Source: Candidatus Methanomethylicaceae archaeon
Lineage (GTDB): Archaea > Thermoproteota > Methanomethylicia > Methanomethylicales > Methanomethylicaceae
Assembly: GCA_049970435.1 (NCBI GenBank)
Contig: JBMFMY010000001.1
Span: 1 to 29,177 of the forward strand
Direction of reading: 5' to 3'
DNA length: 29,177 nucleotides
Shown here: one piece after another, positions 13,314 through 21,496 of the stretch
How positions within the stretch are numbered: the first letter of the stretch is position 1
How the letters are laid out: each line of letters opens with the position of its first letter
Program-made: the position numbers and the translations under genes
Notes under the pieces: generated by a model
Databases searched by the model: none
Told to the model about the DNA's origin: nothing
What the model saw: only the letters and a program-made list of their open reading frames with translations

Positions 13314-13402
13314 GGGCCCGTGGCCTAGCATGGATTAGGGCGTCGGCCTCCGGCGGTTTCGGGGAGAGTCGATAGTCGAGGGTTCAAATCCCTCCGGGCC
13401 CG
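13314..13402 (+). tRNA. tRNA-Arg(CCG) with a 13-nt intron at 37/38
   Basis: Acceptor GGGCCCG/CGGGCCC, D-arm GCCT/GGGC, anticodon stem TCGGC/GTCGA, loop CT-CCG-G|A, T-arm GAGGG-TTCAAAT-CCCTC. Confidence 0.95.
13354..13366 (+). other. tRNA intron CGGTTTCGGGGAG
   Basis: Removing it restores a 7-nt anticodon loop. CTCC(32-35) pairs with intron GGGG, leaving an AG|A 3-nt bulge (BHB/BHL-type). Confidence 0.85.
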
Positions 13403-13408
13403 CTTTAA

Positions 13409-13705
13409 CTTCATCGGCAGGAAGCCCCCTTCTGTAATGGATGGGTGAAAGCCGAAAGACATACAACTTTTCTTGCCGCATATACCTTCACGGATGCGGG
13501 GAGTGGTCACCCCTAAAGCACCTCTGCGCTGGTGATACGAGGTCCGACGCTGGTCCTCTGCCCAAACTGAGAGTTGCCGATGAGGGCAAGTCCTGCGGAT
13601 GGGGCAGAGTAGATACCCTAAAAGGAAGTTCAGAAACGCTCCCCGAGCATTGTAAGAGTAACTAAAGAAAAGTGGAAGCCCCGTCCTTTAGGGCGGGGAG
13701 GTCAC
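13409..13705 (+). mobile_element. non-autonomous IS200/IS605-family mini-element, copy 1 (LE hairpin + omegaRNA-like core + RE)
   Basis: Preceded by TTTAA; LE TCGGC...GCCGA stem; RE CCCCGTCC-TTTA-GGGCGGGG-AG-GTCAC; homologous to 21213-21496; no TIR or TSD. Confidence 0.85.
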
Positions 13706-13775
13706 CCTTGAACCTTGATACCTAAACCTCAAACTTCAAACCTCAAACCCTAAACCCAAAACTCTAAAACCTAAA
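13706..13775 (+). repeat. ten consecutive degenerate 7-nt units (consensus ~CCTCAAA/CCCTAAA)
   Basis: CCTTGAA CCTTGAT ACCTAAA CCTCAAA CTTCAAA CCTCAAA CCCTAAA CCCAAAA CTCTAAA ACCTAAA, in strict 7-nt phase. Confidence 0.85.
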
Positions 13776-21177: not shown

Positions 21178-21212
21178 TTGTCTCTAAAAGTGTCGTTCAG
21201 CGAACTGATTAA

Positions 21213-21496
21213 CTTTGTCGGCGGGAAGTCCCCTTCCGTAAGGGTGGGGATGAGAGCCGAAAATTAATCTCTTCTTGCCGCATATCTTCACAGATGCATG
21301 GATCCCTAAGGCGCCTCTGCGCTGGTGATATGAGGTCCAACGCTGGGCCTCCGTAACTGTATGGATCGAGCCCTACGGACAGAGCAGGAACCTCGCCCCT
21401 TAAAAAAAGGGAAAATTCAGAAACGCTCCCAAAGCGCTGTTAGGGAGTAACTAAAGAAAAGTGGAATCCCCGTCCTTTAGGGCGGGAGGAGATCAC
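21213..21496 (+). mobile_element. non-autonomous IS200/IS605-family mini-element, copy 2
   Basis: Preceded by ATTAA; LE TCGGC-...CCCCTTCC-GTAA-GGGTGGGG...-GCCGA; RE CCCCGTCC-TTTA-GGGCGGG...GATCAC; exact blocks of 14-22 nt shared with copy 1. Confidence 0.85.

Follow-up and report, generated by a model that had tools for sequence, protein, structure and literature searches.

PATEs (palindrome-associated transposable elements) are non-autonomous derivatives of IS200/IS605 insertion sequences (IS) and have been described in Haloquadratum walsbyi (PMC3119063) and Halobacterium (PMC4615843), as well as in Geobacillus and Clostridioides (PMC10055086; bioRxiv 10.1101/2023.11.20.567912). The guide RNA of TnpB, called omegaRNA, reRNA or sotRNA, overlaps the 3' end of tnpB together with the right end of the transposon and takes its guide from the flanking DNA (PMC8612924; PMC4615843). 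Gomes-Filho et al. (2015) drew a connection between HgcC RNA, transcripts of tnpB 3' ends and a PATE RNA that is transcribed, and overexpression of PATE-derived RNA altered the growth of H. salinarum (PMC4615843). According to Meers et al. (2023), PATEs 'often encode omegaRNAs', and these RNAs would need the TnpB of other IS elements, acting on them in trans (PMC10055086). A guide cassette that acts in trans is thus an idea which that publication already contains.

The element that we describe here lies in a Candidatus Methanomethylicaceae archaeon. The window, by which we mean the whole stretch of 29,177 nt that was analysed, is contig C1 of an archaeal MAG of Methanomethylicota type (G000; 1.40 Mb, 316 contigs, 87% complete), and its sequence is present in hot-spring metagenome runs. 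It contains two copies of the element (Table 1), the first of which starts 5 nt past a co-oriented tRNA-Arg(TCG) gene. The original prediction portrayed copy 1 as a protein-free mini-element with a TTTAA target, a left-end hairpin and a right-end hairpin finishing in TCAC, without terminal inverted repeats or a target-site duplication, and each of these features was recovered. The terminal TCAC occupies positions 13702–13705 and the cleavage point lies directly after it; the two ends of copy 1 are not complementary, and no terminal inverted repeats are present. Every reading frame of copy 1 is broken, leaving no usable protein-coding capacity. Its GC content is 54%, compared with 49% for the window, and its 3' part scores 150 bits with model R1. 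Of the five blocks that had been reported as exactly shared between the two copies, each has precisely two occurrences in the window, one in either copy, and their order is the same in both. The flanks of copies 1 and 2 have nothing in common save (T/A)TTAA on the left, and copy 2 is the less worn of the two.

Going from left to right through copy 1, the left end is followed by the position of a BRE/TATA-like box, which reads GCCGAAATATATAAAT in six of the 18 complete copies of the genome and is mutated to GACATACAA in copy 1; this box might serve as a promoter. Further on comes the stretch that goes back to the tnpB 3' tail. Within it lie the 'RMRGVVTPKAP' frame, here broken, the hairpin H1, a further hairpin region that is variable, and a GATG..GCAGGAAC motif, conserved in the family and damaged in copy 1. 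The TTTAA in front of copy 1 would also be the TAM if a TnpB acts there. A G-poor, degenerate run of CTAAACC-like repeats (window 13706–13775) begins right at the right border of copy 1, and this run would be the candidate 'guide' of copy 1. The 16-nt flank at 13706–13721 is single in the genome, the next best match being 15 nt with one mismatch.

Table 1. Coordinates of the features discussed; positions are those of the window unless a contig or locus is named.
Feature	Position	Strand	Basis or remark
tRNA-Arg(TCG), intron-containing	13314..13403	+	Rfam tRNA 50.1 bits and ARAGORN; context only
TTTAA insertion target of copy 1	13404..13408	+	Base counts before 18 complete copies
Mini-element copy 1, 297 nt	13409..13705	+	Borders common to all copies; nhmmer 239 bits
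Left end of copy 1: subterminal hairpin and enclosing TCGGC/GCCGA stem	13409..13457	+	Match to left ends of C17 IS and G004 IS
BRE/TATA-like box position, copy 1	13458..13470	+	Comparison of copies
tnpB 3'-tail-derived segment of copy 1	13488..13633	+	Profile alignment to tnpB tail of G004:C16
Hairpin H1, copy 1	13539-13558	+	Helix pairing test
Hairpin H5, copy 1	13638..13659	+	Family form GCTCCC...GGGAGT
Right-end hairpin CCCCGTCC-TTTA-GGGCGGGG, copy 1	13679..13698	+	Helix pairing test
Terminal AGGTCAC, copy 1	13699..13705	+	Alignments of copies; family consensus AGGAGGTCAC
Would-be guide flank of copy 1, CCTTGAACCTTGATAC, 16 nt	13706..13721	+	Guide role putative
ATTAA target of copy 2	21208..21212	+	Sequence comparison
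Mini-element copy 2, 284 nt	21213..21496	+	nhmmer 297 bits; model R1 174 bits
C59-type IS	G000:C59:236-1853		tnpB = L098:716-1843; also L089, L088

BLAST and profile searches of the whole source genome returned 18 complete copies of 283–353 nt and about 45 fragments, numbers that are lower bounds; the total family size in this MAG is about 40 or more copies. Most of the fragments end at contig ends, which makes the family a main cause of the fragmentation of the MAG. Dozens of contigs break off within the repeat, in many cases close to its central hairpin, which is variable (for example C74:1-144, C46:1-144, C117:4468-4608, C82:5696-5844 and C5:17852-18000). The borders are sharp and common to all copies. 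On the left, they start at the same base after TTTAA, the five bases preceding the 18 complete copies being T14 T16 T18 A16 A15. On the right, the copies end at ...AGGAGGTCAC, with TCAC in all but one, which has TCAT. With 18 complete copies and about 45 fragments sharing these borders, the features are far beyond chance. The left-end hairpin is visible in every copy, and identity among the copies is about 68% overall, compared with 81% across the last 52 nt.

Only the 5' TTTAA is common to the flanks of the 18 complete copies, and no target-site duplication was found among them. So many copies with differing flanks imply past mobility; the public contigs at the copy 1 locus stop at the repeat, with none spanning an unoccupied site. 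A search of the source genome for second genomic targets of the presumed guides found none. Each flank is unique, which fits self-homing, and nothing indicates other targets. The copy on contig C52 is nested, its TTTAA target being part of the region that holds the left-end hairpin of a different IS605-type element (left flank G000:C52:6728-6767), and a TnpB zinc ribbon lies about 800 nt away on the same strand.

The source genome contains ten Y1_Tnp matches and 41 TnpB zinc-ribbon matches, several of the latter in long open frames. An IS on contig C17 is laid out as ...TTTAA, a left end, a 127-aa Y1_Tnp gene and a tnpB gene that runs off the contig; Pfam identifies Y1_Tnp and OrfB_IS605 in it. 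The left end of copy 1 matches the first ∼53 nt of this IS with an E value of 1.3e-11, the right end of the C17 IS lying beyond the contig end, such that the sharing of ends with the mini-element is read on the left end only. In the relative G004, the element profile matches the left end of the orthologous IS (G004:C16) with an E value of 2e-6, and profile positions 79–247 align to the tnpB tail and right end of the same IS (E = 4.8e-8). Intact orthologues of the C17 TnpB in related genomes are 76% identical and end in '...NRIKMRGWDDPKAPVEM...EAGSP...'. The broken frame '...SRMRGVVTPKAPLRW*' of copy 1, whose resemblance to a tnpB tail had been remarked upon from the letters, is present in frame 1 and corresponds to 'NRIKMRGWDDPKAPVEM' of these intact proteins. 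The element is, as originally proposed, a protein-free IS200/IS605 derivative, with the left end of the C17 IS and a core taken from a tnpB tail. As the deletion junction is identical in all copies, the family arose once and was then transposed. We consider it very probable that the element is a PATE with a core derived from a tnpB tail or an omegaRNA.

Other reduced elements accompany this family in the source genome. Contig C15 carries a deletion derivative in which a left end is fused to mid-tnpB, a protein-free mini-element of ∼150 nt that stems from a C59-type IS and ends in TAGTTCAC is found at G000:C309:1-150, and a second protein-free IS605-type family of ∼330 nt, with another core and the same AGGAGGTCAC end, is represented at G000:C9:5255-5584. 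Insertion of IS605-type elements just behind tRNA genes is recurrent in this genome: another element (G000:C2:13993-15520) closely follows a second tRNA gene, has a different left-end hairpin and a tnpB with an in-frame stop, and finishes in AGGACGTCAC. The TnpB clade with the same left end as the mini-element (the 376-aa protein of C59, the C17 type and the orthologues in G004 and G018) appears to be without a Cys4 zinc ribbon. Its Pfam TNB match covers only profile positions 1–33 of 60 and its sequence runs ...NPRGTS...(no Cys)...RD(Y/F)ISA..., while the RuvC Asp/Glu/Asp residues look kept. An origin of the mini-element from two tandem right ends was also considered, given that an inner hairpin plus GTTCAG aligns to the right end of G004:C16; a similar multi-stem layout occurs in HgcC and in other tnpB-linked tails, and we leave this as an idea.

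The right end is where the mini-element and the resident IS elements part. The mini-element ends in AGGAGGTCAC, whereas the tnpB genes of the source genome end in TAGTTCAC, GAGTGTCAA or AGGACGTCAC; the IS copies related to C17 have a similar right-end hairpin and finish in TAGTTCAC, not AGGAGGTCAC. A tnpB with a AGGAGGTCAC right end was found neither in the source MAG (87% complete, with many contigs ending in the repeat) nor in the relatives G004 (97% complete) and G025. One candidate on G004:C14 was rejected on inspection, being a tnpB with its own end and a separate mini-element 215 nt later. The nearest tnpB-linked scaffolds, from another genus of the family, reach only ∼36 bits with R1. 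As regards the genome-wide BLAST search for a parental tnpB that had been suggested as a check, the left end does sit on a resident tnpA–tnpB IS, and none of the tnpB genes found in the source genome carries the AGGAGGTCAC right end.

Next, the internal part of the element was compared with known RNAs. At the gathering thresholds Rfam reports two tRNAs only, and at permissive thresholds it adds sub-threshold hints of HgcC and sot0042. Over its last ∼150 nt the element is similar to the HgcC RNA of archaea (RF00062), with end-to-end matches in four copies at 31, 28, 21 and 16 bits. The best of these (30.9 bits, the C63 copy) and that of copy 1 (16.3 bits) stay below the RF00062 gathering score of 50 bits. 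In related genomes, tnpB genes too end with the terminal hairpin of the element. Blind folding of 19 copies with RNAalifold gave a poor consensus with a covariation term of ∼0, for which reason helices were proposed by eye and then tested. Four helices were put forward: H1, the short H3, H5 and the right-end hairpin. In the 19 copies from the source genome 88% of the cells are paired and five of 24 pairs show double changes. When copies from relatives are added to give 27 sequences, 88% of the cells are again paired and double changes are seen in 11 of the 24 pairs (31 cells). These observed values are reached by 0–1 of 500 shuffles and lie well above those of slid controls, in an alignment that was fitted to the model and consists of related sequences, which can beat shuffles without selection.

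Individually, H1 has 85% of its cells paired with double changes in three pairs, and H5 has 88.5% paired with compensatory changes in three of six pairs; Hadarchaeota copies show further swaps in H5, for example GCGCCC/GGGCGT. For the right-end hairpin the figures are 92% and four of eight pairs, although pairing of this hairpin as DNA is required by TnpA regardless. A possible long-range CCTCC/GGAGG pairing, perhaps a pseudoknot, was dropped, as it offers no informative variation and clashes with H1 and the right-end hairpin. Of the details in the original prediction, the stem CTCTGCCC/GGGCAGAG, put forward as one that was kept despite sequence change, did not hold up: it is peculiar to copy 1 and results from damage in that copy to the otherwise invariant GCAGGAACC motif. 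The more general proposal, that the 3' part retains an omegaRNA-like scaffold, finds support in the distant likeness to HgcC and in moderate covariation.

The family extends well beyond the source genome. With model R1, this protein-free element was also detected in further genera from the taxonomic family of the source archaeon (G004, a Candidatus Methanomethylicota MAG, together with G022, G025 and G026), and an exact-pattern scan over the genomes of 185,579 species shows that several Hadarchaeota MAGs also carry it. In left end, TTTAA target, tail remnant, helices and right end the Hadarchaeota copies agree with those of the source genome. Three of these Hadarchaeota genomes contain 15, 10 and 5 model matches. 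A 'Bacteroidia' match in the same scan is due to chance, as it has neither hairpin nor element context. In none of the genomes that were checked does the element adjoin a tnpB, and in the relatives no open reading frame of more than 124 aa ends near any copy. The assembled parts of the Hadarchaeota MAGs G150 and G151 (loci L177 and L168, with 15 and 10 copies, respectively) contain no Y1 TnpA and only three to four TnpB-like zinc-ribbon matches, none of which adjoins a copy.

The explanation that we favour combines these observations as follows. A C17-type IS consisting of a left end, tnpA and tnpB would have lost tnpA and nearly all of tnpB. What was left would be the left end, the terminal portion of tnpB together with the omegaRNA-type scaffold that overlaps it, and the TCAC right end. 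By the rules of the IS200/IS605 family, a Y1 TnpA made elsewhere in the genome would recognize both end hairpins on single-stranded DNA, excise the element and paste it 3' of TTTAA. An RNA running across the scaffold into the right flank could then be loaded by the TnpB of another IS, with the flank as the guide. After excision, this TnpB would cut the empty site (TTTAA plus flank) and recombination would restore the element. As a whole, that is PATE origin, mobility by TnpA and an RNA for TnpB in trans, we give this explanation a probability of about 0.5. Its last component taken separately, the use of the family RNA by a TnpB in trans, has an even chance of being correct. Points against the explanation are that no tnpB with the AGGAGGTCAC right end turned up in the source genome or in G004, that the element adjoins no tnpB in any genome checked, and that two Hadarchaeota MAGs rich in copies show no Y1 TnpA in their assembled parts.

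The strongest competitor, to which we give somewhat less credence, is a PATE that is moved by TnpA alone. The tnpB-tail and scaffold segment would then be a hitch-hiking remnant devoid of RNA function, and its conservation would result from a few master copies and from horizontal spread between hot-spring archaea rather than from selection. The missing cognate tnpB agrees with such an element, as do the near-zero RNAalifold covariation term, the fold of copy 1, which as RNA is no more stable than shuffled sequences (MFE z of only -1.3), the absence of the TATA-like box from most copies and the several lesions of copy 1. The ∼12% of helix cells that are broken, which indicate that some copies are decaying, point the same way. 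However, TnpA needs the ends only, yet the internal helices H1 and H5 keep their pairing through compensatory changes among copies that are only ∼68% identical and that come from two phyla. Furthermore, one Hadarchaeota lineage has cleanly lost H5 and has retained everything else, which also speaks against this reading.

Considerably less probable is a structured small RNA that is encoded by the element and acts independently of TnpB, for instance in regulation. Such a role was reportedly suggested for the Halobacterium PATE-derived RNA VNG_R0052 and for HgcC RNAs before the activity of TnpB was known. Persistence of the element in genomes where no tnpB adjoins it, and in two MAGs without Y1 TnpA in their assembled part, would fit an RNA of this kind, as would the growth effect in H. 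salinarum mentioned above (PMC4615843). Its scaffold, though, shows homology to 3' ends that are linked to tnpB and, like an omegaRNA, stops precisely where the transposon stops, and outside the scaffold no conserved target or seed is seen, each flank being unique in its genome. An immobile housekeeping or tRNA-linked RNA gene (RNase P RNA, SRP RNA or a tRNA trailer product), as might be thought from the position of copy 1 directly behind a tRNA gene and its raised GC content, is refuted by dozens of sharply bordered copies that follow the same TTTAA target and are otherwise flanked by unrelated sequence, and by the left end held in common with a tnpA–tnpB IS, and no Rfam family is matched at threshold.

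Within the favoured explanation, a TnpB acting in trans, copy 1 itself is one of the poorer candidates. Its score with model R1 is the lowest among the complete copies, which lowers its own odds of activity. A 2-nt deletion leaves H5 with four base pairs, and a 3-nt deletion has removed part of the pre-guide AGGAGG of the family consensus. Judging from these lesions, we think it doubtful that copy 1 is itself used by a TnpB in trans. Its transcription could be supplied by read-through from the tRNA gene upstream.

A further reading of the distribution can be formulated, to which we attach little weight. The family could be an independent 'guide-only' selfish lineage of ∼300 nt, made up of transposon ends and an omegaRNA gene, that has persisted and reached at least two archaeal phyla, has at no time carried a tnpB or tnpA of its own, and parasitizes both enzymes from unrelated IS elements. 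Were this unlikely reading true, the genome would hold dozens of different guides for a shared effector and would in function resemble a CRISPR array, but one that is dispersed and carried by transposons. Provided that the RNAs are used at all, this genome would offer an example from nature in which dozens of guides, each encoded separately, serve one TnpB nuclease or a few. It would then bear on how, on the path towards CRISPR, RNA-guided nucleases and guides turned into modules that can be separated, and on how elements without genes secure their own retention. As a scaffold family of thermophilic archaea with a defined TAM (TTTAA), the family could be paired experimentally with compact TnpBs. 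For the annotation of MAGs, the repeat family should be masked or modelled, as it explains much of the fragmentation.

Among known systems, one parallel is that of the bacterial REP/REPIN sequences and their RAYTs. These are likewise short, hairpin-bearing, non-coding and multi-copy, and are moved in trans by a single-copy enzyme of the HUH/Y1 type. In contrast to the present element, REPINs are paired inverted REPs without a guide-RNA scaffold, and RAYTs are domesticated rather than borne on an IS. The HgcC RNA of Methanocaldococcus and Pyrococcus is another. A 3' end of the form GGAA-CCCCGYCC-TTTA-GGGCGGGG-AGGAGGTCA(G/C), followed by a variable tail, relates the two, the HgcC consensus ending in the same hairpin, AGGAGGTCAG and a variable tail. 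A GATGA..AACCTG motif is present in both and the matches span the whole model. The central stems differ, and with scores of 16–31 bits against a gathering score of 50 the element is not a member of RF00062 by the Rfam rule.

With the omegaRNAs of TnpB the element shares a core that comes from the tnpB 3' tail and, behind a GC hairpin, ends at the right end of the transposon. Its terminal hairpin and its conserved GATG..GAACC motif are those of the tnpB-linked tails in relatives, and the TAM would equal the transposon target, TTTAA. It differs from omegaRNAs in that no tnpB lies upstream, and from the nearest tnpB-linked tails in having the extra hairpin H5 and an A-rich linker.

The closest match is to PATEs. 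Like these, the element has IS200/IS605 ends and no protein gene, lacks terminal inverted repeats and a target-site duplication, is inserted 3' of a short motif and is present in many copies; PATEs depend on TnpA in trans. Three differences stand out. None of the tnpB-bearing IS in the genomes examined has its right-end motif, members of its family occur in both Methanomethylicota and Hadarchaeota, and at ∼290–330 nt it is long for a PATE, which is explained by the retention of ∼230 nt of tnpB tail and scaffold. Since the principle of guides supplied in trans has been published, the gain lies in a well-delimited new family and not in a new mechanism. The new contribution is to have delimited a long archaeal PATE family, not seen attached to tnpB, that has kept its scaffold and crosses the boundary between phyla.
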